Source: a virus | Taxonomy: Duplodnaviria; Caudoviricetes | Direction: 5' to 3' (one strand) | Virus record (IMG/VR): IMGVR_UViG_3300036768_001294 | Coordinates: 1 to 61,944 of that record | DNA: 61,944 nt | Shown: positions 15,117 through 60,731 of the stretch, piece by piece | How the letters are laid out: the number at the start of each line of letters is the position of its first letter | Position numbering within the stretch: the stretch's first letter is position 1 | Translations under genes and position numbers: made by a program | Notes under the pieces: model-generated | Seen by the model: the letters and a program-made list of their open reading frames with translations, nothing else | The model's database searches: none | What the model was told of the DNA's origin: nothing

Positions 15117-15117
15117 C

Positions 15118-17496: not shown

Positions 17497-18032
17497 TCGA
17501 AGTGACGTGTCAGCTTGATGAAGAGACCGAACGAAAGCTCTTCGAAAATCCGCGGCTCTTAGCTCGCTTCCGAGCCGCAGTCCAGCGTGCCTGCGATCAA
17601 CTAGAGGCAAATGTTAAGAAACGGGCGCCGAAGGCTACTGGAGATTTTCTCAAATCTATCGACTGTACCGTTCACGAATTTGGTCATCCATATCGCATCG
17701 TAGGCCGAGTGTACTCAGTTCACCCAGCAGCCGATGCCATTGAGTTTGGAGCCGGGCCACATGTTGTGCCGACTCGGGCAATCTTGCGCTGGATGCAAGC
17801 TGTTAATATGCCCATAGGCAAAGGATTAACCGTGCAAGAGGTTGCCGAACGTATTCAGAAGAGAATTGCTGAACGCGGTCTGAAACCGCACTTTACTTTT
17901 ACAGATGCTTATCAGGATGCCGTTGGCATTTTTAAGAGTGAGCTTGATCCAATCTTAGATAGTATTGACGGACATGCAGAATACTCAGCTGAATTGAGTT
18001 CAAGTGGCTCATGGCAACTACCTTGGGAATAG
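17490..18032 (+). CDS. HK97 gp10-like tail completion protein
   Basis: VKKRAPKATGDFLKSI, AIEFGAGPH, I..RGLKPH.F..AY. Confidence 0.75.
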   Translation: MLIEVTCQLDEETERKLFENPRLLARFRAAVQRACDQLEANVKKRAPKATGDFLKSIDCTVHEFGHPYRIVGRVYSVHPAADAIEFGAGPHVVPTRAILRWMQAVNMPIGKGLTVQEVAERIQKRIAERGLKPHFTFTDAYQDAVGIFKSELDPILDSIDGHAEYSAELSSSGSWQLPWE

Positions 18033-18075
18033 CATCAATTCCCTAACTTTGGTACTCTGGGTTATGAGGGATGCG

Positions 18076-20431: not shown

Positions 20432-21681
20432 ATGTTACTGGGATATTAGAGAAAATTAAAAGCATTATTGCCGGTGTGACCGGAGTAGGAAAGGTATATA
20501 CATTTCGCAGATGGGTTCCTCAAGATAAAGATTTTCAAAGCGTGGTCGTTACAGGAAATCGGATCAATTTTTGGGATATCTATCGTTCCAGTGGTGAAGA
20601 GCGTTGGCCAAATGAATTTCAGTTTCAGAGATCCCACAACATTGTTGTGAGGGGATTTTTATCAGCAAAAGATGCCAGCGCCTCAGAACAAGAATTTCAG
20701 AATATCGTTGAGCGCGTGTCCAAACGGTTTCGTCTCAAGACAAATCGAACACTGAATGAAACAGTTGAATCATTAGGAAGTGGGGAACATCAAGGGCTCC
20801 AGATCTCATCTATCGATTACGGATCGATTCATGGTGCACTCTGTCATATGTTTCAGGGTCGAATTGTTGTCATTGAGAAACCGACCAATGTGCTTTCTGG
20901 GGCTACCGCCACTCAATTCAATGGTCCGCGCATTTTCTTCAAAAATGAAATCACTGATCCAAATCAATTAGCATCAATTTCCATTCGCCCAGGATTTCCG
21001 CTCTCATTCATGATTGATGAATCACCCAAGACTGTCTGGCGCTCAAAGGCCCTTGATACACCAGAGGCAAATGCTCCATATGTCCAGATTGATATCGATC
21101 TTGGAGCAAGCAAAGATATTCGTGCCTTTGCTGTAAAGAATCATAACTTTGGGGCTGGCACATATAGACTCTTCCATGGTATCACACAGATTGCTCTTGT
21201 TGAGATTACCAACTTGCTTAGCACAAAGACACCAGGACAGTGGGTAAGTTTCTTTCCAACCATCACAGCTCGCTACTGGCGGTTTGTTATGCAAGAGGCT
21301 CTTCAGCCGTCTGGATTCTTTCAAATTGGTGAACTGTGGCTTGGGAATGTTCTAGATTTCAGTAAGTGGCATGACGATAATTCGGAAAGCATCTTTTCAG
21401 ACAGACGACAACACGAGACTGACGGCGGCCAACGTTGGCGTTTAACAGGATTTCAGAGGCGTTCCAGAACATATTCATTTAGAAACATCGATCAAGATGG
21501 AGATTGGGCTATTTGGCAAAGGATTTTCAGTGATCGAGGTCGAGAGCATCCATTTTATTTTACGGTCAATCCCGCTGTGCCTTCTTCATCTTTTTTCTGC
21601 ACGATCAAAGAGGCACTAACTGAACGTAATGTGCAGACCAATAAAGTAAATCTTTCTATCACCCTTGATGAGGAGCTGTGA
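20428..21681 (+). CDS. Tail terminator-like N-terminal domain fused to a discoidin/distal-tail-like C-terminal domain
   Basis: N-terminal ~150 aa (GVGKVY, W.I.R, VRGF, SE.EF..IVE...RFR, GALCH) is Mu-like terminator-like; C-terminus has KTVWRS, IDLG, NHN, RYWR, IGELWLG, GR..PF.F. Confidence 0.5.
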   Translation: MNVTGILEKIKSIIAGVTGVGKVYTFRRWVPQDKDFQSVVVTGNRINFWDIYRSSGEERWPNEFQFQRSHNIVVRGFLSAKDASASEQEFQNIVERVSKRFRLKTNRTLNETVESLGSGEHQGLQISSIDYGSIHGALCHMFQGRIVVIEKPTNVLSGATATQFNGPRIFFKNEITDPNQLASISIRPGFPLSFMIDESPKTVWRSKALDTPEANAPYVQIDIDLGASKDIRAFAVKNHNFGAGTYRLFHGITQIALVEITNLLSTKTPGQWVSFFPTITARYWRFVMQEALQPSGFFQIGELWLGNVLDFSKWHDDNSESIFSDRRQHETDGGQRWRLTGFQRRSRTYSFRNIDQDGDWAIWQRIFSDRGREHPFYFTVNPAVPSSSFFCTIKEALTERNVQTNKVNLSITLDEEL

Positions 21682-26503: not shown

Positions 26504-27475
26504 ATGGGAGTTACAATATATCGTAGTACTGATGTTTCAGCTCCAGTTCTTAGTGGAACAACGGGAACGCTCATTGCGGTCCTTGATGCCTGTTTAGTCA
26601 ATGGTTATGGCTCTAAGCCAGCTGCTGGCTGGACAAAAGCATTCAGTGGCACCAACTTAGCCGCTTATAAAATGGGAGGCTCTATTGGCCATTATCTCCG
26701 CGTGGATGATAGCGGCCCTGGGGCTGGCGGTCCCATAGAAGCCAGAGTCCGTGGCTTTGTGACAATGAGCGATGTGAATACGGGAACGGGACCGTTTCCA
26801 ACAGTGTCACAGAAAACAAATGGCTTATTTGTCCGCAAATCAGCGACCTCGGATAGCACGCCTCGACCTTGGCTTGTTGTTGCCGATAATAAAACTTTTT
26901 ATATGTGGGTCCTCACTGGCGATGCTACAGATCGACAATATGGATGGAGTTTTGGCGAGTTTTTTTCACTAGTTCCAACAGATCCTATGAGATCCATCAT
27001 TATTGCCAGGGACACTGAAAATTCATCAACTCTGTCGTCTACCGTTGATGGTCTAGGTTTTGGAGTATTTGGTTTGGGCTCATTAGATTCGAATATTGTC
27101 GGATCGTATGTGGCTGGGACAGTCAATGGTGATGTGAGTAGCACAGCCTATGCAAGATTGGGTGATGCAGGTCTTATTACATCCCCCTCAGTAAGCGGTG
27201 GTGCATATACTGGGAGCATTCAATTTCCCAATGCTGTTAACGGACTTCTTTATGTTTCCCCAATTCGACTCAAACTTGGATCATCCAATTCCCAAATTAG
27301 GGGGCGCCTCAGAGGATTATGGCATTGGGGACATCCATTCGCCAATGCTGTAAATAACATGCAATTTGCTGGAATAGAAACACTTGCCGGGCGACAATTC
27401 ATGATTGTCAAGGGTGATTCTTCGTCTGTCACGCTTTGGGTTGTAGAGATTTCAAATACTTGGGATACTAATTAG
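26504..27475 (+). CDS. Tail/receptor-binding-type virion protein, paralog 1 of 4
   Basis: YRSTD.SAP.L.G, LDACLVNGYG, GWTKAFSGTN, YLRVDD, PFPT, RGRLRGLW, EISNTW. Confidence 0.75.
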   Translation: MGVTIYRSTDVSAPVLSGTTGTLIAVLDACLVNGYGSKPAAGWTKAFSGTNLAAYKMGGSIGHYLRVDDSGPGAGGPIEARVRGFVTMSDVNTGTGPFPTVSQKTNGLFVRKSATSDSTPRPWLVVADNKTFYMWVLTGDATDRQYGWSFGEFFSLVPTDPMRSIIIARDTENSSTLSSTVDGLGFGVFGLGSLDSNIVGSYVAGTVNGDVSSTAYARLGDAGLITSPSVSGGAYTGSIQFPNAVNGLLYVSPIRLKLGSSNSQIRGRLRGLWHWGHPFANAVNNMQFAGIETLAGRQFMIVKGDSSSVTLWVVEISNTWDTN

Positions 27476-27487
27476 GGAAGAAAGCCA

Positions 27488-28438
27488 ATGACCGTTAGAT
27501 TATATCGTAGCTCAGATGTTGGTGCTCCGGCCTTGACGGGACAGGTCAATTCACTGATCAATGTCCTGAGCGCTTGCTTAGTGGATGGCTATGGAGCTCA
27601 GGCCCCTGCATTATGGACCAAAGATTTTACGGGTGTAAACAAAGCCGTGTTTAGGGCAGGGGCTGGGCCAAAGCACTATATTCGCATCGATGATAGCGGT
27701 CCTGGGATAAATGGTGCTGCTGAAGCAAGGGTTCGAGCTTTTGAATCGATGACCGACGTGGACACAGGAACATTTCCATACCCAACAACGTCTCAGCGTG
27801 CGAATGGGATTTTTATTCGCAAGTCAGCAACTGCTGATGCAACGGTCAGACAGTGGATCGTCCTTGCTGATGAACACACCATGTATATGTTCGTATCAAC
27901 TGGAGGAACAATTGATTGGGTTGGTTGGTCATTTGGGGAATTTTTCTCATTTTCATCAATTGATGCGCAGTGGAGATCTGTCCTAATCGCCATCAATGCT
28001 GAAGGCAGTAATGCTGCTTCAGATTTCTCGCTCAGTCGAAATTTTACTCCTGGTGCTGGGGCTTCAGATGCAGCAATATATATAGCGCGCTCTGAAGATG
28101 GTACTGTGAATAGCATACAAGGGTCAATCTACGGAGATAGATCTCTTTCAAGCATAGTAACGAATAATGCTACGAATGCTGGTATCTTGGCGGCTCCGAA
28201 TCCTGTGGATGGTGGTTTTTATGTGTCAAGGATGACGCTAGCATATCTTACCTCTCCCGTCATACGAGGAATGCTGCGAGGATTTCATCACTGGGGACAT
28301 CCAAGAGGAGCGGTGGGTAATGCCGTCATTAATGGGTCCGGAAATTTTGCCGGGAAACAATTGCAGTTGATAGATGCTGGAATCGGACTTAATGCATCAT
28401 ATCTTCTAGAGATTTCTAATACCTGGGAATTGAATTGA
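27488..28438 (+). CDS. Tail virion protein, paralog 2 of 4
   Basis: Same conserved N- and C-terminal motifs, divergent middle. Confidence 0.75.
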   Translation: MTVRLYRSSDVGAPALTGQVNSLINVLSACLVDGYGAQAPALWTKDFTGVNKAVFRAGAGPKHYIRIDDSGPGINGAAEARVRAFESMTDVDTGTFPYPTTSQRANGIFIRKSATADATVRQWIVLADEHTMYMFVSTGGTIDWVGWSFGEFFSFSSIDAQWRSVLIAINAEGSNAASDFSLSRNFTPGAGASDAAIYIARSEDGTVNSIQGSIYGDRSLSSIVTNNATNAGILAAPNPVDGGFYVSRMTLAYLTSPVIRGMLRGFHHWGHPRGAVGNAVINGSGNFAGKQLQLIDAGIGLNASYLLEISNTWELN

Positions 28439-29442
28439 TGACGGTTAGAGCTTTTACAAATCTTAGTGTCAGTAATAGCCTCACCGGACAAGCTGGAAGC
28501 CTTATTGACATACTCGATGCTTGTCTTGTCAGTGGTGCCGGTTGGACCAAAGCGTTTTCTGGCACGAATAAAGCTGTATATCGGGCTCCACAGGGTCAGC
28601 AATTCTATCTTCGCGTTGACGACACCGGGCCAGGGGCTCATGGAGGACGTGAAGCCAGAGTTCGCGGTTTCGAGTCAATGACCGATGTCGATACAGGCAC
28701 AAATCCATTTCCCACTGTTGCTCAGAAAGCCAATGGACTATTTGTTCGTAAGTCAGCAACTGCCGATACCACAGTTCGCTCATGGAAGGTCTTTGTGGAT
28801 GAACGCACATTTTATATGTTTATACAAACTGGTGACATTGCCGGCACCTATTTTGGTTGGGCATTTGGTGAGATCTATTCTTTCAAGACAAACGACCCTG
28901 GACGAACGATTCTCATTGCTAGGCCCAATGAAGCCAATACGAGCGGTTATGCTGGAGATGAGCCATTTGCCTATGCTATCGTGAAGCCTTCAAATCTGTC
29001 CCAACCAGCCCACTACCTCGCTAGAGCTGTTGGTGGAGGTGCTGGAGCAAAAGCTTGTGGAAAGATCCAGGCTGGTCTCACTTCTTCAAAAGACCTCGAT
29101 AATCAAGTGACCGAGGCCCTACCGATTATTGGTTATTTGGATCAACCTCCGACCACCAGTCATCGATGGAAGCTTGCAAGCTTACGAGTAATCGAAGATG
29201 ATGGCTCTGGAAACATGGTCATTCGCGGTCGGCTTCGCGGACTCATGCAAGTCTGTCATCATCCAGCGTACGCACAAACCATCCTCATAGACAATGCAAT
29301 ATTTTCAGGTCAAGGAAATCTTGCCAATCGGGCGTTCCAGACAGTTTTGGTATTGGGACGAGCAGCATTTGACTCAACGGGCAAAATCGCTTCTGGCAGC
29401 GCTGCCGCCGTTGAAATCACAGATTGGGAAGTCTCATCATGA
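28438..29442 (+). CDS. Tail virion protein, paralog 3 of 4
   Basis: Same motifs (LDACLV, GWTKAFSGTNKA, EARVRGFESM, RGRLRGL). Confidence 0.75.
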   Translation: MTVRAFTNLSVSNSLTGQAGSLIDILDACLVSGAGWTKAFSGTNKAVYRAPQGQQFYLRVDDTGPGAHGGREARVRGFESMTDVDTGTNPFPTVAQKANGLFVRKSATADTTVRSWKVFVDERTFYMFIQTGDIAGTYFGWAFGEIYSFKTNDPGRTILIARPNEANTSGYAGDEPFAYAIVKPSNLSQPAHYLARAVGGGAGAKACGKIQAGLTSSKDLDNQVTEALPIIGYLDQPPTTSHRWKLASLRVIEDDGSGNMVIRGRLRGLMQVCHHPAYAQTILIDNAIFSGQGNLANRAFQTVLVLGRAAFDSTGKIASGSAAAVEITDWEVSS

Positions 29443-30404
29443 CTGTAAGACTGTACCAGTCTACAGATACAAGCGCTCCATCACTCACAGGAGAAAATGG
29501 ATCGCTTATTACTGTACTTGATGCTTGCCTTGTCAACGGCTACGGAACAAAAACTGCTGCGGGGTGGACCAAAGCTTTCAGCGGAACAAACAAGGCTGCA
29601 TATCGCATGGGTTTGGGGCTCCAGAACTATGTAAGAGTTTACGATGATGGCTCATCCGGAGATGGGCGCCAAGCACTTACACGCGGATTTGAGACCATGA
29701 GCGATGTCGATAACGGTCTCCTGCCTTTTCCAACAGTCCAACAACGATTGCAAGGAATCTTCATTCTCAAATCCACGACAGCAGATAGTACAGCGCGCCC
29801 GTGGAAGATCTTAGCCGATGAACGCACCATCTATATGTTTACTAAGCCGGATGGCTCGACATTTTGGTCAGGCTGGATGTATGGCGAAATTAATTCTTTT
29901 GTTAGTGGTGATCTAGGTCGATCTTCCATCGTTGGAAGAATTGCTTCGATGTCGAATACACCAGCCGATGGAGAATGGCTTGATCGTTACACTCATCTCT
30001 TAGGCTTCTCAGTTGATGGTCTCTCATCTTTTCATTACATGGCACGCCCTGTAGATTACACAAAGACTGGATCAGTAGAAGGCGGCCAAGGTGGTGACCT
30101 GGAAATCCTCAAAGCTGGTACTGTGAGAGACCCTGGCATTTCCCGCCCCAATCCCGCCGACAATCGTACATATCTCTCCCGCATTTATGCATTCTCATTA
30201 GCCGTAGGCGGATCGAGAGGATCAATTCGCGGTTACTTGAGGGGCCTTTGGCAGTATTGTCATCCAAGCAGCACGGTCACGGATGGAGACGTACTAACCG
30301 GTGCCGGATCATTAGCCGGTCGATCATTTTTGATTCTTAAGCCAACGGGAAATTCAATCGTATATTGTCTTGAAACATCAAACACTTGGGACACATCTAG
30401 CTAA
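29439..30404 (+). CDS. Tail virion protein, paralog 4 of 4
   Basis: Same motifs (LDACLVNGYG, GWTKAFSGTNKA, RGYLRGLW, ETSNTW). Confidence 0.75.
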   Translation: MTVRLYQSTDTSAPSLTGENGSLITVLDACLVNGYGTKTAAGWTKAFSGTNKAAYRMGLGLQNYVRVYDDGSSGDGRQALTRGFETMSDVDNGLLPFPTVQQRLQGIFILKSTTADSTARPWKILADERTIYMFTKPDGSTFWSGWMYGEINSFVSGDLGRSSIVGRIASMSNTPADGEWLDRYTHLLGFSVDGLSSFHYMARPVDYTKTGSVEGGQGGDLEILKAGTVRDPGISRPNPADNRTYLSRIYAFSLAVGGSRGSIRGYLRGLWQYCHPSSTVTDGDVLTGAGSLAGRSFLILKPTGNSIVYCLETSNTWDTSS

Positions 30405-30835: not shown

Positions 30836-31582
30836 ATGGATATTCCAGAAGACGAAGTTTGGATACCAACAGGAGAAAAGGGTCGTCCGCCCAAATTTTC
30901 TCCCAAGTATGGCTTAGAACATCGGGCCCTCGCTTATGAAGCATTCTTAAAAGGGGCGAATTGGACAGATTGCGCGAGGGCTTTTGCCCATCATGATCCT
31001 GCAAAAACTGGACGCATGCTCGTCAAAAAATGGGCAAAAGAAGATGGGTGGCGGCGTTCTATCAAGGCTGATCAGCAGTATAAGATGAAGATCGAACAGA
31101 GAATCACGACTGATCCCGTTCGAATCTCAAGAGAGATTGATATACTTTGCTTGAAAATGCAGCAAGTTGCAGAAAATTATATCGAAGGATTCTTTGAGGT
31201 CGATGATGAAGGGCAGCAGAAAGTTGTCATCGACGCAGCATTCAAAACCAGAGATTTTGCTGATATGGCTGCCGCATTGCGGATGATTCACGAGACCAGA
31301 ATCAAGATCCGAAAAGCCACCGAGGAAGTCAATAAGACAAATAAACAGGGTGGCGGGAAAGATTTCATCTCATTCATGAAGGAAATTGGTAAAGAGAAGA
31401 TGGCCGAGCGGAATGCCCTCGTGAAAATAGAAACTTCGCATATCAACAAGGAATCATGGGATGCCTACAAAGCGCGCAGACAAAAAGCTGACCGCGAAAA
31501 TTCGGAAGCTTCCGAAGAAGACGATGCGGGAGAATCCGAAGACACGTCTTATTCGCGAACCACCTATCCCGAGATTACATAG
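30836..31582 (+). CDS. terS: Putative terminase small subunit
   Basis: GRPPK, HTH-like region ending KWAKEDGW, helical middle; directly precedes TerL. Confidence 0.65.
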   Translation: MDIPEDEVWIPTGEKGRPPKFSPKYGLEHRALAYEAFLKGANWTDCARAFAHHDPAKTGRMLVKKWAKEDGWRRSIKADQQYKMKIEQRITTDPVRISREIDILCLKMQQVAENYIEGFFEVDDEGQQKVVIDAAFKTRDFADMAAALRMIHETRIKIRKATEEVNKTNKQGGGKDFISFMKEIGKEKMAERNALVKIETSHINKESWDAYKARRQKADRENSEASEEDDAGESEDTSYSRTTYPEIT

Positions 31583-33203
31583 GACGCACAAAGATATCTG
31601 GAACTTTATCACCGATGAACAAGTAACTCCAGATGCAGCATATGGCGAGCTTAAGCAAATCTTCAAACGCTACTACGATGATCCTGTGCGATTCGTTACC
31701 GACACTCTTGCACCGGTTGCCTACACTGGAAGACTTGGACCAGATCCCTGGCAGTGCGATGTCTTAGAAGCCCTCCTCGAACATCGTCTCGTAGCCGTAA
31801 AATCCGCCCATGGTGTCGGCAAAACCAGCTGCTGCGTGTTTGCTGCATATTGGTTTCTCACAACTCGATATCTTTCCAAAGTCCCCATCATCGCCCCCAC
31901 CTTTGGCAAGCAGATCAAAGCCATGATCTTTGCCGAGATGCATTTGTGGCGGAAGCGCTCCTTGCTGCGCGATATCTATACCAGCAATCAGACCAAAATC
32001 GGCATTGTAGGCGCAGAGATGGAGTGGTTTGCTGAGGGCGTTGCGGCTGAGGAACCCGATAAAGTTGAAGGCTTCCATGCCCCTGGTGGCGTCTTTTATA
32101 TCCTTGACGAAGCCAAAGGCATTAAGCACAAGATTTGGGATGCTGCAAGAGGCGCACTCACCGGCACAGAAGATCGCATGCTAGCCGTATCCACTCCGCC
32201 TCTCGCTCCCGTTGGCGAGTTTGTCAGAGTCTTCACCCATTTGCGAACCACCTGGAAGACCTTTTCCATTGGTCCCACACCGCGTCAATCTAAGGAATGG
32301 CGTCAAGAGCGTGAGCGAGAATGGCCAAAGGGATCGCCAGAGTATGTTTCTAAAATCTTGGGAGAAATTCCCACATCTGCAACAGATCGTACCATCATTC
32401 CGCTCAATCTCATCGAAGCCGCCATGAAACGTCAGCCGACAGCAGAGATGTTGAAAGGGCCGTCGCGGATTGGCATGGATGTGGCGCGTTATGGGCAAGA
32501 CTCAACCGTTTTAGCCTTCCTACAAGGCAAGGCAGTAACCAGGCTTGAAACATTTTCCAAGCAAGATACGGCCACAAGTGCAAAGATCCTCGAAGAGGCA
32601 CTGCCGTATTATGATAGCGCACAGATCGATGAAGTCGCCGTTGGTGCAGGAGTCATCGATCCCCTATCTCATCATCCTGAGTTGAAAAAGAAGATCATTC
32701 CCGTCCGCGCCAACGATGCTTCACCAGAGCCAGAGCGGTATCATAATCTGGCGACATGGATGTGGTTTAAATTTTTGGAGTGGCTTGAGGCTGGAGGCAT
32801 ATTGCCATACGATGATGAACTCTGCTCTCAGTTAGCCTCAAGAGAGTACGAGTGGCATTACCAGTACGGAAGGATGAGCCGGCGCCTCACCTCCAAATCA
32901 AAATTAGCCACTTCCGGCAAATCACCGGATAAAGCCGAAGCCGTCATTCTCGCTGTCGTTCAAGTACCAAGAGCAATGGCTGTGATTCTTGGTGATAAAG
33001 ATATGAAAGAAGAACAAGAGAGTCTTAGGAGTCTCGAAGAGAAAGCTCAATCCATCCGTCGATTAAGATCACAAGAAAAAGAAGCAGTTGATGAAGCACC
33101 AGAAGATCGACGGCTTGATCGTTTGGGAATCCATAGTCATCATCGTAAACAACAATTCTTTTCGAGGGAAAAATCAATTGGATTTTGGAGACGAAAGCCT
33201 TGA
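31461..33203 (+). CDS. terL: Terminase large subunit
   Basis: PDPWQ, KSAHGVGKT (Walker A), APT..Q, ILDEAKG (Walker B), STP, GMDVARYGQD nuclease motif, SPDKAEA. Confidence 0.92.
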   Translation: MPTKRADKKLTAKIRKLPKKTMRENPKTRLIREPPIPRLHRTHKDIWNFITDEQVTPDAAYGELKQIFKRYYDDPVRFVTDTLAPVAYTGRLGPDPWQCDVLEALLEHRLVAVKSAHGVGKTSCCVFAAYWFLTTRYLSKVPIIAPTFGKQIKAMIFAEMHLWRKRSLLRDIYTSNQTKIGIVGAEMEWFAEGVAAEEPDKVEGFHAPGGVFYILDEAKGIKHKIWDAARGALTGTEDRMLAVSTPPLAPVGEFVRVFTHLRTTWKTFSIGPTPRQSKEWRQEREREWPKGSPEYVSKILGEIPTSATDRTIIPLNLIEAAMKRQPTAEMLKGPSRIGMDVARYGQDSTVLAFLQGKAVTRLETFSKQDTATSAKILEEALPYYDSAQIDEVAVGAGVIDPLSHHPELKKKIIPVRANDASPEPERYHNLATWMWFKFLEWLEAGGILPYDDELCSQLASREYEWHYQYGRMSRRLTSKSKLATSGKSPDKAEAVILAVVQVPRAMAVILGDKDMKEEQESLRSLEEKAQSIRRLRSQEKEAVDEAPEDRRLDRLGIHSHHRKQQFFSREKSIGFWRRKP

Positions 33204-34856: not shown

Positions 34857-35083
34857 TGTATGCGATTGATCGAAAATCCTGGCCAGTCTTCGAAGATGAT
34901 GAAGGTCTATACGCCGTTCGTTATATATGGAATGAATTTTCCCTACAGCACACGCACCTAACCATCATTCCAATCGATGAACCCACCAGCACCCTGGCTA
35001 TTCGCCCAACTTGGCGTCCTCGTCAGCATTGGATCTCGGACATATCAGCCACTGGCACTCATCTCACAACTTCGCCAGCGTAA
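34857..35083 (+). CDS. Hypothetical protein
   Basis: RBS GGGAG before ATG 34857, within track ORF 34802..35083. Confidence 0.4.
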
Positions 35084-35630
35084 TGCCCGTTTGCGCCTGA
35101 TATTTCCCCGACCGATCCGCATACGAAACGTCACACACTTCAGCGCTGCCTAAGAAGATTACCTGTGCCACACCCTCATTAGCATAGATCTTTGCCGGTA
35201 GTGGCGTTGTGTTGGCAATCTCAATCGTCAGATGCCCTTCCCATCCCGGCTCAAGCGGCGTCATATTCACCGCGATGCCGCATCGGGCATACGTACTTTT
35301 GCCCAAGACAATCCCGAGCACATGATTAGGCATGCGAAAGTATTCGACCGAGCGCCCCAACACAAACGAATTAGGAGGAATGATGCAGACATCACCCTCA
35401 TAATCGACAAACGAGCGCGAATCAAATCGTTTGGGATCGACAACCATCGCATTGATGTTCGTGAAGATCTTAAATTCTGGGGCAATTCGCATATCGTAGC
35501 CCATCGAAGAGAGCCCATAGGAGATGACCCCTTGTCGTTGCAAACGCTCTTCAAAGGGCTCGATCATGCGATGTTCGATGGCATAGCGGCGAATCATCCG
35601 GTCTGTAAAAATCTGGCCGTAACGCTTCAT
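35064..35630 (-). CDS. dcd: dCTP deaminase
   Basis: [51 protein letters not shown]; RBS GGAGGA. Confidence 0.93.
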
Positions 35631-35664
35631 GATATCCTCCATGCAGAATAGACCCATCATATCT

Positions 35665-36372
35665 TTAATTGGGACAGATGGTTTGAGAAGGCTGACCTTT
35701 AGCAAGATAGCTGGGTGTCGCCCTTTGCATCATGCCTTTAATAAAGTCATCGATGCGTTGCTGCTGTTCTGGCGAGCGCTCGGGAATTTCTGGGGGATGA
35801 ATCATTTCCCGGTCAATCCGCATGATCTTGTAGGACTTATCGATCACATAGGTATCTTTAGGAGTTGGGTTGTAGACGGGCTCCTTAATGGGCTCGCCGT
35901 AAAAGCACATGGGGACGGGCTCTAATTTCCACCGCCACGGCCAGTGATGCAGAAAGGATTTGATGAAGAGACGCTTCAATTCGGACGCCTCAACTTCCGT
36001 ATTGACCGATAAGAACTTGTGACAAGTATTTGGCCAGGTTTGCCACATATCTTCCAAGGCATGGCCCATGACCGGATCTTCAATGATCATTGTGGCCGTT
36101 TTGCCGTACCCTAATGCCGTTTTCAGCGTCTCAAAGGCCGTGAGGGCTTGTTGCTCACCATCCCCATCGATGAAGCGTATCAACTCAGCAACTTTAGGGA
36201 ACTGGTTACACCGTTCTACCGCCACATCGATAGCCTGCAACACATCGTGCAACTCATAGTGGGAAAGATGTTTGAAATAGAGGCTCACTAGCTCAGATTG
36301 TTTCTTGCGCTCAAACGCTAAGAAGAGATCTTGAAAAGCCCTTGAGAATCGGTCAAAATCTTTAGACTCCAT
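35665..36372 (-). CDS. Replication-associated protein (DUF6475 / helicase-loader-inhibitor-like)
   Basis: LYF..L..Y....V..A, FPKVAEL, A..A, DP....LE.M...W, F...F; follows an initiator-like gene. Confidence 0.55.
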
Positions 36373-36373
36373 C

Positions 36374-36964
36374 TTACGCCTCCTCTAAGAGATTCGAACC
36401 TTCCGCATCACGCGGAGCTTCCATCATGGCATCGCCTTCCTGACCATCATCATAGTGGCCTTCCTTGATTTTGGCAAAGAACTCCACGCCATTCTTGTCC
36501 CGCGCCGTGACTAACCAGTCAAATGTGACAAAAGGGCGGCTCTTTAAAAAGCTGGATTGCTCGATCTTCCGCAGAATCTCCTCCCAGTCTCGACGCTCCG
36601 GCATCAGCTTCAGAGCCCGACGAATCGCCCGCCGTCGTCCGGGACTAATCACGGTCACGCGCTTGCGCTCATCTTGAACCCAGCTATTCCAGAGATCCAC
36701 GAGGTTTTGGACATTATCGGAAAATCGACGTGATGCCAAGTGGTGATGCCGAGCCGCCTGTTCCGGATAAGAGAGGAGGCTAGGAACATCATCATCAAGG
36801 AAAAGCTCATAGCGCGAATCAATCTTGGCAAGATCCCGAAGCGAGACAAGCGCTGCAATCGCCTTAGAATTCCGGACAATCACAATGGGCTTGCCAATCT
36901 CCTGAATAGAATCCAGCAACTTCTTCACATTAATCGACAATTCAGAAGCCGTGATTTGTTGCAT
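36374..36964 (-). CDS. Phd/YefM-type DNA-binding domain fused to a phage replication-initiator-like C-terminal domain
   Basis: N: ITASEL...KKLLD.I...GKPIVIVRN.K.IAALVS (Phd); C: LWN, R...I...L, S.FL, TFDWL, KI.EG.YD. Confidence 0.65.
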   Translation of the reverse strand: MQQITASELSINVKKLLDSIQEIGKPIVIVRNSKAIAALVSLRDLAKIDSRYELFLDDDVPSLLSYPEQAARHHHLASRRFSDNVQNLVDLWNSWVQDERKRVTVISPGRRRAIRRALKLMPERRDWEEILRKIEQSSFLKSRPFVTFDWLVTARDKNGVEFFAKIKEGHYDDGQEGDAMMEAPRDAEGSNLLEEA

Positions 36965-37508: not shown

Positions 37509-37695
37509 TAGATACCGTTTGCTTTGAGAGATGTTAATCCTGCCTCCCTCCAATATCTTACCACGGTGGTACTACCTTAAAAGCCACAGACTCTAGGCTT
37601 CCCACCTATCCTTAGATACGGTTTGCTTTGAGAGATGTGATTCAAACCCCCTCCATGATTCTACCACGGTGGTACTACCTAAAGAACCACAGACT
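37509..37695. repeat. Two-copy ~104-bp direct repeat containing palindrome TACCAC-G-GTGGTA
   Basis: TAGATACnGTTTGCTTTGAGAGATGT (37509, 37613), TACCACGGTGGTACTACCT (37559, 37662), CCACAGACT (37584, 37687). Confidence 0.85.
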
Positions 37696-43734: not shown

Positions 43735-44217
43735 GTGTATACATTTACCAGGGTTCTGGGCCTCTTCCGCGGCTCTGCAAAGAGGCGCATGCTAGGCCCA
43801 GAGCCAGGTGGAAAGTTCTGGGGTATTGACCCCTTTCCATGGGGTCAACCCGATTCGGGGAAGAAGACTATCTATCTAGATGAGGAGGCCTTCTTCCGCC
43901 GACATGATAGAGTGTGGCTTGGTATTCCCAATGTTGGCGGGCTTATCTGGAAGCCTATCCAGAGTCCCCATGAGTTAGATCAGTATAATTTTAAATTTGT
44001 GGATGAAGTGAATGGTTTGGGCGAAACAGTAATAATCGTCCGCCCATTTCTCCCACAATTATATGCCATCAAACGGGGCTATCGCTATTCTGCGCCCCGT
44101 TTGATGCGCTGTGATGAATGTGGGCATCACGTTGATGCAATCAAACAGCATCAGCTTGCCCACTGCGATGACTGCTGGTGGGCATGCAACATGTGCCTGG
44201 GTGCATCGACAATGTGA
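43735..44217 (+). CDS. Hypothetical protein with C-terminal Cys cluster
   Basis: CDEC, CDDC, CNMC. Confidence 0.55.
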   Translation: MYTFTRVLGLFRGSAKRRMLGPEPGGKFWGIDPFPWGQPDSGKKTIYLDEEAFFRRHDRVWLGIPNVGGLIWKPIQSPHELDQYNFKFVDEVNGLGETVIIVRPFLPQLYAIKRGYRYSAPRLMRCDECGHHVDAIKQHQLAHCDDCWWACNMCLGASTM

Positions 44218-44233
44218 GAATGAAGGAGAAAAT

Positions 44234-44653
44234 ATGCTTATTAATTTGACCAATCATCCCAGCGCAACATGGTCTTCCGAGCAGCGGGAGGCTGCTATCT
44301 CCCGCTACGGCGAAATCGTGGATGTCCAATTTCCATACATCTCGCCGACCGCTAGCCGGTCAGATGTGGCTAAGCTGGCACAAGAGTATGTCAATAGATG
44401 CCGTTCTCTTTTACCCGATCCATACCGGCATGCCCCAACATGCCAGCTAGATCCCTGTGATTGCCCAGACGATGCTATCCATCTGATGGGCGAAATTTCA
44501 TTCGTGCTCTTATTCGCCCGCGCCTGGGGTGGCGTGGGCGATGATGACTCTCTAGCTCCAATCGTTGTTTCCACTACAGAGCGAGTAGTGGAAGACCTTG
44601 GGGGAGGGCAGAAAAAGGCTACCTTCAAGTTTATTTCTTTCCGAGAACTCTGA
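44234..44653 (+). CDS. Csx20/Csx15-like CRISPR-associated protein; candidate cyclic-oligoadenylate ring nuclease
   Basis: MLINLTNHPS..WS.EQ..AA..YG.IVD..FP.I.P, IHLMGE, STTER..E...K...FKF..FR; RBS AAGGAG. Confidence 0.65.
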   Translation: MLINLTNHPSATWSSEQREAAISRYGEIVDVQFPYISPTASRSDVAKLAQEYVNRCRSLLPDPYRHAPTCQLDPCDCPDDAIHLMGEISFVLLFARAWGGVGDDDSLAPIVVSTTERVVEDLGGGQKKATFKFISFREL

Positions 44654-44664
44654 GAGGTGGAGAC

Positions 44665-44898
44665 ATGTATACGGTCTATAATGATGTTGGTGGTATAATC
44701 CATCGAGGTTGCTCCTTAGAGCGTGCCATGCAGGTTGCTATCAACGATGATACGGCCGAGCCATATATTCATTCGGCCAGAGGTAAGCGGCCGGTCGTTC
44801 TTGACCAGAGAGGACAGCCTCATCTCGGAAATTATGGTGAGTCGCTTGATGACTTTCGTGACCGCCTATATGCGACCGACCAGGCATCATATTTCTGA
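44665..44898 (+). CDS. Hypothetical protein, paralog of the N-terminus of 57381..57839
   Basis: MY.VYN..GG.I..G.SL..AM, YI..ARGKRPV, G.P.LG..GE..D.F.DRL in both. Confidence 0.7.
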   Translation: MYTVYNDVGGIIHRGCSLERAMQVAINDDTAEPYIHSARGKRPVVLDQRGQPHLGNYGESLDDFRDRLYATDQASYF

Positions 44899-46100: not shown

Positions 46101-46424
46101 ATGAAGCACATTAATCTTACGGTGAAATTCCTACGACAGGCATACAAACGGGCTAAGTCTATTCCAGGTTATGGATGGTGGTATCTCGTAGAGGATGAAC
46201 GGTTTGGAGGGTGCACGTATGAGTGTCCCTTCCATGTAGTATCCGGTGCTACATCCGAGAGTGAGGCTGCCGATGCGTTTCAGGTTCAGATCTGCTGTAT
46301 CGATGGCTTCCTCTCCGGATGGGATGGCGAGGATAAGATCGTCTTTCCCGATGAGTGTGAGCGGTGCTTTCGGCTTGGCAAGAAGCTGCGCGCCATACTT
46401 CATCCCGTACCAATCGATGGCTGA
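46101..46424 (+). CDS. Cys-rich small protein, paralog 1 of 3
   Basis: L...YK, G.W, Y.CP, C...F..GWD, CxxC..LG..L...L.P. Confidence 0.7.
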   Translation: MKHINLTVKFLRQAYKRAKSIPGYGWWYLVEDERFGGCTYECPFHVVSGATSESEAADAFQVQICCIDGFLSGWDGEDKIVFPDECERCFRLGKKLRAILHPVPIDG

Positions 46425-46441: not shown

Positions 46442-46651
46442 ATGAAACGTGACAAAAATTCCCGAGCCCATCCACGATGTGAGGTGCATCCAGAGCGCCG
46501 CGGTTATCCCTTGGTGGGATACTGCCGTGATGGTGGTGGTGTCTTATATTTCTGTGATTCCTGTACAGCGCAAGCGCTACATAGTACTGTTGCGGATGTT
46601 CGCGAAGCTCGTCGGCTTCAGAAAGAGGCTTTAAACGATGAAGCATATTGA
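46442..46651 (+). CDS. Small hypothetical protein (CxxH ... CxxC)
   Basis: RBS GGAG before ATG 46442, within track ORF 46364..46651. Confidence 0.45.
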   Translation: MKRDKNSRAHPRCEVHPERRGYPLVGYCRDGGGVLYFCDSCTAQALHSTVADVREARRLQKEALNDEAY

Positions 46652-46961
46652 ATGCTCCATTCAGGAGCTCCGTTCATTGTACAAACACCACAATGTGCGC
46701 CCATGCAAGGGCGCTTGGTTTCACTTCGATGTCGAAGATGGATTGATTTATCATTGCCCCTTATATCTTATGTATGGGCTGAATCAGCCGTCAGAGATTC
46801 GACGTATCTACGGTATTCCAGTGGATTGCAGCTGGAGTTTTGTGAGAGGCTGGGACAACTCACCAGTTACGATTCTGTCATGCCCACAGTGCTATGAGCT
46901 TGGCCAGAAGCTGAGCCGGAAATTGCGTCCTAAGCATTTTGAGCAGGAGGAAGAATTTTAA
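46638..46961 (+). CDS. Cys-rich small protein, paralog 2 of 3
   Basis: Same motif set (YHCPL, FVRGWD, CPQCYELG.KL.RKL.PK). Confidence 0.7.
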   Translation: MKHIECSIQELRSLYKHHNVRPCKGAWFHFDVEDGLIYHCPLYLMYGLNQPSEIRRIYGIPVDCSWSFVRGWDNSPVTILSCPQCYELGQKLSRKLRPKHFEQEEEF

Positions 46962-47022: not shown

Positions 47023-47331
47023 ATGGAACATGTAGAGTTTGATGAAGATGATTTGAAAGCCTTATATAAGGCAGAAAATGCACTACCGTGCTGCGGCGTC
47101 TGGCATATGAGTGAGGGTGGATTGCAATATCACTGTCCGCTGTCACTGAAGTATCGTGACGCCTCAGCCATTCGAGTGGCACAGAAGTCGCACATTCCGC
47201 TGGAATGTGTGTACTCTTTCATAGGAGGGTGGGATGGTATAACTTCACAAGAGGAGCATGAATGCTCGCGGTGTTTCAATCTCGGTGATCAACTACACAG
47301 GAAACTTAAACCAAAGTATTTTGAGGAGTGA
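47023..47331 (+). CDS. Cys-rich small protein, paralog 3 of 3
   Basis: Same motif set (YHCPL, FIGGWD, CSRCFNLG..L.RKLKPK). Confidence 0.7.
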   Translation: MEHVEFDEDDLKALYKAENALPCCGVWHMSEGGLQYHCPLSLKYRDASAIRVAQKSHIPLECVYSFIGGWDGITSQEEHECSRCFNLGDQLHRKLKPKYFEE

Positions 47332-47334
47332 ATA

Positions 47335-47727
47335 ATGGCCTTTAACTTCAATCAAGTGACTTTTGGGGGTAACCTAACGCGAGATCCGGAGCTGAGGTAT
47401 TCACAATCGGGTAATCCGGTCTTGAAGCTCGGTCTGGCTGTCAACAACCGGATTAAGAAAGGTGATGCATGGGTCGATGACCCATGCTACATCGATATCG
47501 CGGTATTTGGCAAGACCGCTGAATACGTCGCCGAGCGTGTGTCAAAGGGGCAGCCAGTGCTTGTTTCTGGCCGTTTGCAGTATCGGACCTGGACGGCGGA
47601 TGATGGCTCGAAGCGTGCCAAACATGAGGTCTTGGCTGATCGAGTCATTCCCCTCACGTTCTCCAAGTCACGAGAACCCGGCTCTGACGATGAACCAGAA
47701 ACCGGCGATGATCCGCTTCCGTTCTAA
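47335..47727 (+). CDS. ssb: Single-stranded DNA-binding protein
   Basis: NQV...GNLTRDPELRY, LAVN, FGK.AE, KG..V.VSGRL..R.W, acidic tail DDPLPF. Confidence 0.95.
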   Translation: MAFNFNQVTFGGNLTRDPELRYSQSGNPVLKLGLAVNNRIKKGDAWVDDPCYIDIAVFGKTAEYVAERVSKGQPVLVSGRLQYRTWTADDGSKRAKHEVLADRVIPLTFSKSREPGSDDEPETGDDPLPF

Positions 47728-49945: not shown

Positions 49946-51451
49946 ATGGACATCAGACAGCAATTCAAGGCTGCCAGAAATCGAAGTGTGCCACTTGTCG
50001 GGATTGTCAGTCCCGATGCTGCAGCAACAATTTCCTGGATTCAAAAATCCTTGCCAAATGAGACGCCCATCACATTATGGGATTCAGCTAGAGGTCTTCT
50101 CGGCGCTAATAATCAAGGCGCTGAGAAAATCCTTGCCATAACGGGCATTGACAATGCCCTTGAATTGCGAAATCTAACGAGCGATCCCGTCAATTCGATG
50201 GATATCGTCTCGAAACTCCCAGAGCAATCCATTAGCATCTTCTTAAATTTACAAGCCCATTGGCATGCTCCAGAAGTTGCGCAGGCTGTGTGGAACCTGC
50301 GAGATCTCTTTAAGTCTGACTTTAGAACATGCGTGATAATTGGTCCCGAGCTGAAACCACCGCTTGTGCTCCATCACGATCTCGTTATTCTTGATGAACC
50401 ACTGCCCTCTGACGATGAGATTGCGCACATTGCACTCTCAATGTATGAGGCTGGTGGTCTTCCCACTCCAGATGAAACCGTCTTGCGGCGAATTTGCGAG
50501 ACTGTTCGTGGGCTCTCCGCGTTTGCCGCAGAGCAAGCCATTGCCCTGAGCATGAATGGCAAGGGCATGAATTTTCGTCTGCTTTGGCACCATAAGCGCA
50601 AGCAGATTGAAAATACGCCCGGATTGAAAGTGCATCTAGGTGGTGAGACCTTTCAGGATCTAGCCGGCCTAGACAGCGCCAAACACTTTATCAGCGGCCT
50701 CTTCCGCGGACCAAATCCTCCACGGGCTATTGTGTACGTCGAAGAAATTGAGAAAATGTTTGCAGGCTCCTCCAGCGATTTCGCTGGCGATGGTGGTGTG
50801 GCAAAGGATGCTCTTCAGACAATTCTCACCGAAATGGAGGAGAACGATTGGTCTGGCATGATTCTTGTAGGTCCACCAGGATCAGGAAAGAGCCTCATTT
50901 CGCGGGCGGTGGGTGCAACATTTGATGTGCCAACCATTGCCTTTGATTTGGGGGCGACTCGCCAATCATTGGTTGGTGCCTCGGAGCAAAATATTCGTGC
51001 GTGTTTCCGAGTGATTCAAGCGGTGGCGCAGAAAGGTGGAGCCTTTTGGATTGCCACTTGCAATAAACATGAAGTCCTACCGCCGGAGCTTCGGCGTCGG
51101 TTTCGTTACGGCATTTGGTACACGGGCATGCCGGATGAGCAGGAATTACAGGCTATCTGGAATTTGCAGCGTGCAAAATATCATATTCCAGAGAGTGATC
51201 CTATGCCAACAGGCATCCGTTACACCGGAGCCGATGTCCGCAACATTTGTGAGATTGCCTGGCGTTTGCAAATTCCGCTTAAGCAAGCTGCACAGTATAT
51301 TGTGCCAATTGCTATTTCCGATCCGCAGTCGATTTTGCGGCTTGAGGAAAGTGCCGATGGACGATTCCTCAATGCCAGTCATCCTGGTGTCTATCGGCGA
51401 TCAAAAGTTGAGAATGTGGAGCGACCGCGAAGATTAGCGATGGAGGGTTGA
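49946..51451 (+). CDS. Ycf46-like AAA+ ATPase
   Basis: Degenerate N-terminal AAA, F.DLAGL...K, GPPGSGKS (Walker A), SLVG.SE.N.R, ATCN, LPPEL.RRF, TGAD. Confidence 0.85.
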   Translation: MDIRQQFKAARNRSVPLVGIVSPDAAATISWIQKSLPNETPITLWDSARGLLGANNQGAEKILAITGIDNALELRNLTSDPVNSMDIVSKLPEQSISIFLNLQAHWHAPEVAQAVWNLRDLFKSDFRTCVIIGPELKPPLVLHHDLVILDEPLPSDDEIAHIALSMYEAGGLPTPDETVLRRICETVRGLSAFAAEQAIALSMNGKGMNFRLLWHHKRKQIENTPGLKVHLGGETFQDLAGLDSAKHFISGLFRGPNPPRAIVYVEEIEKMFAGSSSDFAGDGGVAKDALQTILTEMEENDWSGMILVGPPGSGKSLISRAVGATFDVPTIAFDLGATRQSLVGASEQNIRACFRVIQAVAQKGGAFWIATCNKHEVLPPELRRRFRYGIWYTGMPDEQELQAIWNLQRAKYHIPESDPMPTGIRYTGADVRNICEIAWRLQIPLKQAAQYIVPIAISDPQSILRLEESADGRFLNASHPGVYRRSKVENVERPRRLAMEG

Positions 51452-56230: not shown

Positions 56231-57220
56231 ATGCTTAGTCAAGAACAACGTGATCGACGAAGACAATCCATTGGTGGATCAGACATTGGAGTTATTGCAG
56301 GAGTCAACCCTTATAAGTCAGCATATGACTTATATCTCGAAAAGATCGGTGAGAAAGCCGATGATGCCCAAAATGATGCACAGTACTGGGGACTCCTGCT
56401 AGAAGAGCCGATTGCAAAGTTTTACTCCATCCAGCATCAAGAAATCCTACATGCCTTCACAGAAACCCTCATTCATCCAGATTATCCATTTCTTACCGCC
56501 AATCCTGATCGCGTCATTCTTGATGAAAATGGTCAGGCAAAACGAGTCATTGAGATTAAAACTGCTGGCATTGGCGGCATCAAACACTGGCATGATCAAG
56601 ATTCCCCTGGTAAACTGAGACCACCCGATTATGTCTCTCTTCAAGCCAATTGGTATGCTGGATTTCTTGAGTGTCAAGAGATCGATATTGTTCTCTTGCA
56701 CTTTTGCGAATCTTTTGACACGAATCGTTATGTCGAATTTCGGATGGACTTCGATCCTGAGCTCTTCAGACTCAGCGTTGAGATGGCCGTCGATTTCTGG
56801 CAGAATCATGTCATGCCGCAAAATCCTCCACTTCATACATGCACTCCAAAGGAATTCGATCATTATTTGCAGCGCAAATTCCAAGAGAGTACGGAAGAAA
56901 TCATTGAGTCAACGGCCGAGCTCGATCAGTTAGCCAGCAAATATGCGCACGCCAGTCATCAAGAAGATTTCTGGCATCGCCAGAAAACAATGCTGGCAAA
57001 TTTGTTCAAGCAAGCGATTGGTGAGAAATCCGGCATTATGGGAAAAAACTGGATTTGTCGCTGGGTTCCCATCAAGAGCGGTGGTGTGGATTGGCGAGCC
57101 CTCGCTGCTAGCAAAAATCCCAGCTATGAAGAATTGAAACAGTTTGAGCGTCCGGGTTACCGGCGCTTATATTTTCGCATGAAAGAGCAGGTGGATGACA
57201 TTCGGTCCGATGCATTATAG
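56231..57220 (+). CDS. YqaJ-like (lambda-exonuclease family) protein
   Basis: R..IGGSD...I.G.NPY.S...LY.EK, WG..LE, ANPD, IEIKT, Q..WY, FW..HV....PP. Confidence 0.92.
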   Translation: MLSQEQRDRRRQSIGGSDIGVIAGVNPYKSAYDLYLEKIGEKADDAQNDAQYWGLLLEEPIAKFYSIQHQEILHAFTETLIHPDYPFLTANPDRVILDENGQAKRVIEIKTAGIGGIKHWHDQDSPGKLRPPDYVSLQANWYAGFLECQEIDIVLLHFCESFDTNRYVEFRMDFDPELFRLSVEMAVDFWQNHVMPQNPPLHTCTPKEFDHYLQRKFQESTEEIIESTAELDQLASKYAHASHQEDFWHRQKTMLANLFKQAIGEKSGIMGKNWICRWVPIKSGGVDWRALAASKNPSYEELKQFERPGYRRLYFRMKEQVDDIRSDAL

Positions 57221-58954: not shown

Positions 58955-59392
58955 ATGGATTCCTCGCTTATTCTCGTCAGCCCAAAGAAGTTTTACCTCC
59001 CAGAAACGAAGCATTATTTGCTAAGACAAGCTGTCTCCGAGCTTATTGTTGAAGATAATCACTGGATGTTTATCCTGGCTCTCACTGATACGCATTTGTA
59101 TGATTTGCTGAAGGATTTCGTCTTCAGTCGTGAAGGTGGTTCAGTTCCCATGCTGATTCTCAACTCATTATCTATTCCCTTAACAGTTGTATTTGTTCCA
59201 AAAGAGCGTTTTAGCGAAGAGGAGGTTGAAGAGTTTTTACAAAGTTTGGGAATGAAGTACATTCGATATGAAGAAGAAGGTGAAGATAGCTCTATGATTG
59301 TTTTGGGCGAACGACCAGGATTTATTGATGGCCAAGGCATGCTCATTCAATCATTTGGCCAGTGGATGCTCATCGATTCTCTTCTCAATTAG
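58955..59392 (+). CDS. Hypothetical protein
   Basis: RBS AAGGAG; ORF track. Confidence 0.5.
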   Translation: MDSSLILVSPKKFYLPETKHYLLRQAVSELIVEDNHWMFILALTDTHLYDLLKDFVFSREGGSVPMLILNSLSIPLTVVFVPKERFSEEEVEEFLQSLGMKYIRYEEEGEDSSMIVLGERPGFIDGQGMLIQSFGQWMLIDSLLN

Positions 59393-59402
59393 GTTCCCAA
59401 TC

Positions 59403-60731
59403 ATGCCGAGTAATAATCATGTTCCGCCAGCTCTCATGAGCGCCGAGAGAAATGTTCTCGGCGCTCTGCTTCTTGATGGTGAATTATGTAATCAAGTGAT
59501 TGATATTCTTCCACCTCATCAGGGCACATGGTTTCACCATGCGGCTCATCATCTCATATTTCAGGCAATCCTTGTGCTCTATGAGCGCCATGAGCCTATC
59601 GACTTACACACGGTCTCAAATGTTCTCATTCAACGGGAACAATTGCAGAAAGTTGGCGGTAGTCGGTATCTCGCTGAGCTCATGGAGTCCGTCGTCTCCA
59701 CAGCGAATATCACATTTCATGCGAGACTTATTCGAGAAAAGGCGATTTACCGAACGCTCATCAATATTGCTTCATGTCTCTCCGATTCGGCTTACCGAGG
59801 AGAGAATCTTCAGGAAATCATAGGATCTGCCTATGATTCTTTGATGCAGGTTTCGCAGCTCCAAAATTCTTCTGATTTTGTGACCATGGAGCAAATGGTT
59901 CCGCGCATTATCTCAGAGGCACAACGTCCACGGTCACAGACACTGACTGGCCTTGATACAGGCTTTCCAGAATTAAATCGGATGACGGGTGGCTTTCAGA
60001 ATGCTGATTTGATTATTGTGGCTGCAAGGCCGGGACAAGGGAAAACGTCTTTAGGCTTGCAGTTTGCTGTAACGGCTGCTAGTATCCAAGATCGTCCCAT
60101 CGTGATCTTCAGCTTAGAGATGAGCAAGGAGCAGCTAGTCCAACGCATGATCTGTGCCGAGGCCCGGATTGACTCCTCACATTTCCGTCGAGGTCAGCTC
60201 CAGCATGATGAGTGGGACCACATTATGACAGTCAGCAGCCGCCTACAATATTTGCCGATTTTCATCGATGAGACACCGGGCTTGACAACAGTCGATATGC
60301 GTGCGCGGCTCAGACGCATCCGTACAGAGCGCGGACTTGCATGCATCATTGTGGATTATCTGCAATTGATTTCCCCTAAGAAACATCGAGATAACCGGAC
60401 GATGGAAGTATCTGAAATCAGCCGTGATCTAAAGCTCATGGCTAAGGAATTTGATGTGCCAGTTATCGCAATGGCCCAGCTCAGCCGGGCTGTGGAAAGT
60501 CGGCAGCCTCCAGTTCCACAGCTCTCAGATTTACGTGACAGCGGCGCCATTGAAAATGATGCCGATATTGTGATGTTCATTTACCGTGGCGATATTTACC
60601 AGCCCAATACTGATACAGGCGTAAGACTCATGCTTGCCAAACATCGTAATGGGCCAACGGGAGAAGTGAAATTAATGTTTCATAACGACTATGCTCGTTT
60701 TGATAGCGTTATTCGGGAGTCCTATGATTAA
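59403..60731 (+). CDS. dnaB: Replicative DNA helicase DnaB
   Basis: PP....AE..VLG, TGF.EL...TGG, AARPGQGKT, FSLEM, VDYLQL, QLSR, SDLRDSGAIE.DAD, KHRNGPTG. Confidence 0.96.
   Translation: MPSNNHVPPALMSAERNVLGALLLDGELCNQVIDILPPHQGTWFHHAAHHLIFQAILVLYERHEPIDLHTVSNVLIQREQLQKVGGSRYLAELMESVVSTANITFHARLIREKAIYRTLINIASCLSDSAYRGENLQEIIGSAYDSLMQVSQLQNSSDFVTMEQMVPRIISEAQRPRSQTLTGLDTGFPELNRMTGGFQNADLIIVAARPGQGKTSLGLQFAVTAASIQDRPIVIFSLEMSKEQLVQRMICAEARIDSSHFRRGQLQHDEWDHIMTVSSRLQYLPIFIDETPGLTTVDMRARLRRIRTERGLACIIVDYLQLISPKKHRDNRTMEVSEISRDLKLMAKEFDVPVIAMAQLSRAVESRQPPVPQLSDLRDSGAIENDADIVMFIYRGDIYQPNTDTGVRLMLAKHRNGPTGEVKLMFHNDYARFDSVIRESYD

Follow-up and report, generated by a model that had tools for sequence, protein, structure and literature searches.

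The window analysed here is the whole of an IMG/VR virus record, a linear fragment of 61,944 bp with a GC content of 47.7%, and it belongs to a tailed phage from a microbial mat. The stretch is present in two DNA runs labelled microbial mat metagenome, one of which may be its source. CheckV puts the completeness of the record at about 60%, with the remainder of the phage lying outside the 61.9 kb. The subject of this analysis is a small gene, referred to below as csx20, which lies in the window together with the following features.

44234..44653, + strand: csx20-like gene, stop codon included, encoding a 139-aa predicted homodimeric CARF-like ring nuclease
44222..44228, + strand: Shine-Dalgarno-like GAAGGAG, 5 nt ahead of the ATG, read from the sequence
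44429..44464, + strand: codons of H66-x3-C70-x4-C75-x-C77, the core of an insert and a candidate zinc-binding knuckle
44531..44560, + strand: second subclade-specific insertion, GVGDDDSLAP, residues 100-109, between helix 3 and strand 4
44203..44214, + strand: the 12-mer GCATCGACAATG without mismatch, 20 nt ahead of the csx20 start codon
43318..43432, + strand: intergenic array of 11/21-bp repeats of the same 12-mer (TRF period 21, 5.7 copies, score 120)
26504-30404: tail-assembly protein (phrog_9600, E 1e-34 to 1e-50), present as four tandem paralogues
31461-33203: large terminase, TerL (phrog_2, 1.9e-30)
47335-47727: SSB (Pfam)
49946-51451: AAA ATPase
56231-57220: RecE-like exonuclease
59298-60731: DnaB helicase

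The csx20 gene belongs to a series of small orphan genes, closely spaced on the + strand, that continues into the replication region; the genes for SSB, the AAA ATPase, the RecE-like exonuclease and DnaB lie downstream. The csx20 gene starts 16 nt past the stop of the gene at 43735-44217 and ends 11 nt ahead of the ATG of the gene at 44665-44898. The frame opens with ATG at 44234, runs for 139 codons and closes with TGA at 44651-44653. A longer frame from a GTG at 44111 is unsupported as the gene start; it overlaps the upstream gene, and we rejected it because family members begin at the same M-L-I-N-L-T-N-H, with M1 kept in at least 90% of 91 aligned family sequences. The reverse-strand open reading frame at 44305-44703 was rejected as a gene, the profile match and the selection pattern both lying on the + strand. 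A promoter scan gave 15 sigma-70-like sites against 11.0 ± 3.2 in shuffles and was uninformative. The sigma-70-like site at 44206-44233 was set aside as a csx20 promoter, since its -10 hexamer would abut the ATG, in conflict with use of the ribosome-binding site.

Across ten neighbouring ORFs, neither PADLOC nor PHROGs returned any family, and Pfam at E<=0.1 gave the SSB (47335-47727) and sub-threshold zinc-finger matches on 43735-44217 and 47023-47331, with the other seven blank. No Aca-like regulator (HTH or RHH) and no known anti-defence gene was detected beside csx20 among these scanned neighbours. The gene directly upstream of csx20 (43735-44217) has a Cys/His-rich end (CDECGHH...HCDDCWWACNMC) with a sub-threshold zinc-ribbon match to DUF1451 (E 0.048).

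The 12-mer array ends 10 nt before the ATG at 43442, the start of the gene that heads the csx20-containing block. Exact or one-mismatch copies beyond the array lie at 41935, 44203, 44984, 48367 and 50145, on the + strand only and confined to 41.9-50.2 kb. Allowing up to two mismatches raises the count to 22, compared with 7.15 ± 2.59 in shuffles. The 12-mer is absent from L001, a viral contig that carries a csx20 homologue. The repeats may function as an operator or as an array of iterons, or may be a motif associated with gene starts; we tentatively regard the array as a regulatory region.

As for the phage itself, no close DNA match to the record was found among 50,697 phage records, and the record has no tRNAs. 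With TerL, the tail-assembly protein and DnaB, the matches are spread over phages of diverse hosts, at 28-42% identity. For DnaB the top match is Planktothrix phage PaV-LD (41.8%), and the nearest cultured relatives of the tail-assembly paralogues are siphophages of Xylella, Sphingomonas, Stenotrophomonas and Xanthomonas (about 36% identity). Elsewhere, the record carries a sugar/radical-SAM cluster at 6782-21681, which might act on glycans of the virion, the DNA or the host surface, with the following members.

6782-8149 and 12339-14405: B12-binding radical SAM proteins
9665-10582: NDP-sugar epimerase
15016-16221: GT1 glycosyltransferase
18004-19164: UDP-GlcNAc 2-epimerase
19154-20431: GT2-TPR protein

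A search with the UDP-GlcNAc 2-epimerase retrieved metagenome proteins at 53-58% identity and then assorted bacteria at 38% or less. A minus-strand trio at 35064-36964 encodes a dCTP deaminase-like protein (PF22769, 9.7e-34), a 235-aa orphan and a protein of 196 aa with a match to the Phd/YefM antitoxin domain over its first 48 residues. There is also an apparently non-coding direct repeat at 37509-37695 (103-bp unit, 1.8 copies, 83% matches).

Profile comparisons make it nearly certain that the window protein is a member of the Csx20 family. The PADLOC Csx20 model PDLC01397 matches from end to end (E 2.4e-29, 100.2 bits; residues 1-138 against positions 1-113 of 114), and a six-frame PADLOC Csx20 search of the record found a single copy (8.6e-30). 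The protein (P0001) bears the precomputed label PF27247.1, and a word-indexed search yielded 77 relatives, 76 of which have the precomputed label PF27247. An exhaustive HMMER search collected 1417 representative proteins at E<=1e-3, 237 of them at E<=1e-10, among them fusion proteins of about 560 aa in which Csx20 forms the C-terminal part. The neighbours of the protein in the atlas are PF27247/MJ1673 clusters, one of them 80% viral. A tblastn search with the protein against the 50,697 phage records gave one weak partial match only. The motifs from which the earlier note had proposed a Csx20-like protein are all present, namely NLTNHPS..W...Q (4-17), FP.I.P (33-38), HLMGE (83-87), STTER (113-117) and F.F..FR (131-137), and the identity itself is borne out by the profile match and the labelled relatives. 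The separation from AcrIII-1 (DUF1874), which had also been claimed, holds as well: the protein has no Pfam match, and PF08960 is absent from all six frames of the record.

General libraries were of little help, as a Pfam-A copy without the PF27247 model, NCBIfam and PHROGs gave no match to the protein at E<=10. This includes the NCBIfam model NF040559 (CAS_Csx20, cut-off 70 bits), which matched neither the window protein nor L001. The miss is not decisive because the model is narrow, giving only 26.9 bits for the type III-D-linked copy of Tannerella forsythia (L021); in a control, none of four other records (L021, L031, L003 and L001) reached 70 bits, the best scoring 51 bits. Pipelines relying on NF040559 will overlook most bacterial and viral Csx20 genes. 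One representative protein of 5975 aa (P0078) matched query residues 21-52 in 41 separate stretches (E 1.4e-49) and is probably a repeat protein resembling the segment from helix 1 to strand 2.

The conserved residues of the family are retained. N4, W13, Q17, P34, G86, E87 and F133 are invariant in the 91 aligned sequences and present in the window protein, as are N7, H8, P9, D30, F33, H83, T114, R117, F131, F136 and R137, which are kept in at least 90% of them. An AlphaFold2 model (pLDDT 90.9, pTM 0.84) has the order beta-alpha-beta-alpha-beta-alpha-beta-beta, with a strand at 2-5, a helix at 15-25, a strand at 28-30, a helix at 42-59, a strand at 81-84, a helix at 88-98 and C-terminal strands at 110-123 and 126-138. 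Foldseek against the PDB found no match at E<=1e-3 (best E 2.3e-2). The top PDB look-alikes, all weak and sub-threshold, are mostly cOA-sensing CARF/SAVED domains, among them Csm6 (9w3w), Cam1 (8t66), Cap5, SAVED-CHAT, Csa3, Cad1 and a Crn1-type ring nuclease (7z56). Foldseek against viral models gave one match, to a 128-aa protein (8e-4), and a profile search of PDB sequences returned spurious designed-repeat proteins only.

The protein is predicted to form a two-fold homodimer. The ipSAE was 0.84, 0.81 and 0.86 in three runs, and the highest of three controls scored 0.02; contacts agreed to at least 95%, with a partner pLDDT of at least 90. In the calibration of the tool, 20 of 30 solved homo-pairs reached the mark, as did 1 of 23 single chains, counts that apply only roughly here because a custom alignment was used and a zinc ligand was included. 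The predicted interface comprises residues 36-46, 84-96, 100-102, 110-116 and 134-139, which correspond to the conserved MGE, STTER and FR segments.

Within this fold lies a 20-residue insert at residues 61-80 (nt 44414-44473; pLDDT 62-71), missing from the typical Csx20 proteins of 116-125 aa, whose core at residues 66-77 reads HAPTCQLDPCDC. The earlier note had called attention to an unusual H/C-rich insert, and this, the most original part of that first reading, proved to be real: of the 91 aligned family members, 6 carry it (P0001-P0004, P0079 and P0006), with all four ligand-like residues kept and a linker of 4 to 21 residues between the H-x3-C and C-x-C halves. A scan for the H-x3-C...C-x-C motif found it in 9 of 229 family proteins, in none of 58 genome-locus proteins, in 2 of 54 metagenome-locus proteins and also in L001. 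The two metagenome-locus carriers (L072 and L076) are on short contigs of packed same-strand ORFs of 66-98 aa, a phage-like layout, and show no type III relatives. The insert occurs only in a small subclade, which has so far turned up on contigs that are viral or phage-like.

One histidine and three cysteines at such spacing are a typical zinc-knuckle signature, and the insert most likely folds into a small knuckle stabilised by zinc. It lies outside the predicted dimer interface. Rossmann-fold topology would put it on the face opposite the nucleotide pocket, because the insert precedes strand 3 and the conserved loops follow strands 1 and 3. A literature search returned no paper linking Csx20 with zinc. 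The second insertion (residues 100-109, pLDDT 75) corresponds to a gap of five columns in all other aligned members, and its residues 100-102, together with residue 110, contact the partner chain in the dimer model. Both insertions could alter specificity or activity.

Cellular relatives of Csx20 are true type III genes. In Tannerella forsythia ATCC 43037, the homologue (36% identical to the window protein; PADLOC Csx20 1.4e-37) lies directly after genes for Csx1 (CARF-HEPN), a CARF-PD-DExK nuclease and the type III-D Cas5, Cas7 and Csx19. We used six T. forsythia type III-D/CARF-effector proteins as tblastn queries against csx20 loci and found relatives at 40 of 65 genome loci (30 of 37 when only genome loci of 12 kb or more are counted) and at 37 of 63 metagenome loci, all of which are lower bounds because BLAST from one locus misses distant cas genes. 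The window and two viral contigs, L001 and L003, gave no match in the same search. The 61.9-kb record has no match to Cas10 (TIGR02578, TIGR02577), no CRISPR-like array and no Rfam families. The earlier note had described a stand-alone early-region gene without cas genes nearby; the absence of cas genes extends to the whole 61.9-kb record, and the early-region label is one we infer from position. Location away from a type III locus is what is expected for a viral copy, and it bears on the term "CRISPR-associated" and not on fold or chemistry.

The history of the gene is best seen from its relatives. The closest cellular copy over 65 genome loci is 41% identical to the window protein; these loci were found with the single pattern M[LF]INLTNH, which biases their taxon range. 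Relatives at 75-78% identity were found by the word-indexed search and were not recovered by the metagenome scan. A quick maximum-likelihood tree of 82 rows and 121 columns, in which many forks are unresolved, places the window protein with P0002-P0004 and L001 (SH-aLRT 97) and then loosely with other metagenomic proteins; the named cellular copies from Bacteroidota, Ignavibacteriota, Bacillota and others all lie on the opposite side.

The viral contig L001 has a GC content of 67.7%, against 47.7% in the window. Over 138 codons, the two csx20 genes share 76% amino acid identity and 43.5% third-position identity, with pN 0.152, a saturated pS of 0.755 and GC3 of 51% versus 82%. On these codon comparisons, the insert subclade is under strong purifying selection in two phages 20 GC points apart, with purifying selection on the Csx20 core along its whole length, and csx20 is old, functional and at home in both phages. 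The window and L001 share only csx20 and one member of a small Cys-rich family. This family is represented in the window by paralogues of about 105 aa at 46101-46424, 46638-46961 and 47023-47331, which have no significant family match, and in L001 by a homologue at 9641-10003 (42% identity), 0.7 kb downstream of the L001 csx20 homologue. The GC3 of the window csx20 (50.7%) equals that of the phage (mean of 16 phage genes 49.6 ± 7.4), so there is no sign of recent capture. For the captured host off-switch that was first proposed, no close cellular donor turned up among the 65 genome loci, and the tree partners are metagenomic or viral only; recent capture is not supported, and any ancient transfer may have run in either direction.

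Ring nucleases decide the outcome of type III CRISPR signalling, tipping the cell toward recovery or death, and viral ring nucleases are enzymatic anti-CRISPRs that act sub-stoichiometrically. By analogy with its cellular relatives, the csx20 product is probably a ring nuclease used for phage counter-defence. The cleft of the Csx20 dimer would bind cA4 made by the host Cas10 once type III CRISPR senses phage RNA, and would open the ring to give linear products. The cA4-dependent effectors (Csx1, Can1/2-type nucleases and similar proteins) would then stay off, and the phage would escape the type III signalling arm. The H-x3-C...C-x-C knuckle would be a structural or partner-docking add-on, apart from catalysis.

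The analogy draws on published biochemistry. Cellular Csx20 is a proven cA4 ring nuclease that also acts on cA3 at 10 uM enzyme, in an EDTA buffer (PMC12409355), in agreement with the earlier note's statement that some proteins of the group are reported to degrade cyclic oligoadenylate. PMC12409355 also ranks cellular Csx20 first in frequency among the ring nucleases of type III loci, with 78 loci. Background on Crn4 and on predicted catalytic residue types is given in PMC12830947 and PMC8284326. A literature search returned no assay of any viral Csx20.

Alternatively, the protein might be a sponge for cyclic oligoadenylate and not an enzyme, its dimer sequestering cA4 or cA3 without useful turnover, as phage sponge proteins do. 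The conserved pocket residues fit binding alone equally well, the two insertions set the subclade apart as divergent, and the sponge idea has been raised as a possibility for Csx15 in PMC12409355. We consider this unlikely, however, as all polar residues invariant in the enzyme family are retained (H8, E87, R117, R137 and others), and the cellular Csx20 tested in that paper turned over a 100-fold excess of cA4.

A target other than type III signalling has about the same low standing. Here, the protein would be a ring nuclease acting mainly against another cyclic-oligoadenylate pathway, such as cA3-signalling CBASS, or broadly across several. The complete degradation of cA3 by cellular Csx20 at 10 uM enzyme (PMC12409355) would allow for this, and PMC12830947, on Crn4, makes the case that a viral nuclease acting on cA3 could work against CBASS as well as type III systems. 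Yet Csx20 prefers cA4 and co-occurs with cA4 effectors (PMC12409355), and in T. forsythia, the one annotated cellular locus, the genes ahead of it include CARF effectors of the Csx1 and PD-DExK types.

It is rather improbable that the insert has given the protein a different function, such as binding nucleic acid or another protein by way of a zinc knuckle, with ring-nuclease activity secondary or lost. The insert is conserved and subclade-specific, and the silence of NF040559 might be read in the same direction, but the Csx20 core is intact and under purifying selection throughout, and the insert would lie away from the pocket by topology and falls outside the dimer interface. A housekeeping role in the phage or lysogen, damping cyclic oligoadenylate from prophage self-targeting or controlling a system in the remaining 40% of the genome, is highly improbable: the record is only about 60% complete and cellular ring nucleases act as off-switches of their own system (PMC12409355), but the 61.9 kb contain no Cas10, CARF effector or CRISPR array, and the 59 ORFs of the record that were scanned yielded neither an integrase nor a repressor.

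Counter-defence through ring opening therefore remains our preferred reading, and it can be set against the systems already described. Cellular Csx20 (PF27247 "MJ1673", PDLC01397; Hoikkala et al. 2025, PMC12409355) matches the window protein over the full profile length and has in common with it NLTNHPS..W..Q, H.MGE, STTER, F.F..FR, a modelled alpha/beta fold that is putatively CARF-like, and a predicted homodimer. Unlike cellular Csx20, the window copy is encoded by a phage whose 61.9-kb record shows no type III genes. Its identity to named cellular copies does not exceed 41%, it has the 20-residue H/C3 insert and the second insertion, and it is missed by NF040559. Similar to the published phage Csx20 genes, it stands alone on a mobile element and is read as a cas gene co-opted to counter host defence (PMC12409355, PMC13551039). 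It belongs to the insert-bearing subclade, a feature that the published phage Csx20 might share, and differs from the csx20 paired with Aca14 in PMC13551039 in having no RHH/HTH Aca-type gene among the scanned neighbours.

AcrIII-1/Crn2 (DUF1874, PF08960) has the same proposed role as the window protein, that of a small dimeric destroyer of cA4 directed against type III signalling, but is unrelated in family and fold, with PF08960 matching neither the protein nor the record. In the consulted text of PMC12830947, no viral ring nuclease other than AcrIII-1 is cited as an established anti-CRISPR. To Crn1 (CARF ring nuclease; Sis0455 7z56, Sso2081 7YGH), the window protein has no sequence-level relation, and the structural match is below significance.

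Because cellular Csx20 is a proven cA4 nuclease and phage Csx20 has already been published, the anti-CRISPR reading is plausible and not new. The earlier note overstated its novelty: phage Csx20 as a likely anti-CRISPR is in print, with Csx20 in 4 and AcrIII-1 in 36 of 28,114 phage genomes (PMC12409355) and with phage csx20 presented as a co-opted cas gene in acr operons alongside the RHH regulator Aca14 (PMC13551039). What is new are the details, namely the subclade with the H/C3 insert, its apparent restriction to viral settings, the 12-mer adjoining the gene and the purifying selection in two phages of divergent GC content. A broader scenario, possible but doubtful, would join them: a virus-restricted Csx20 lineage that gained a zinc knuckle and a second loop, was long kept in phages of very different composition and became specialised for counter-defence, its extra module stabilising the protein or docking onto a host component and its expression possibly tied to the phage-specific GCATCGACAATG.

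On its own, the window copy leaves the picture of viral ring nucleases unchanged, because the concept has already been published. The phage csx20 copy described here encodes a variant that is well conserved, seems specific to phages and may have a metal site, and for these reasons the window Csx20 is a reasonable candidate for an assay of a viral Csx20.
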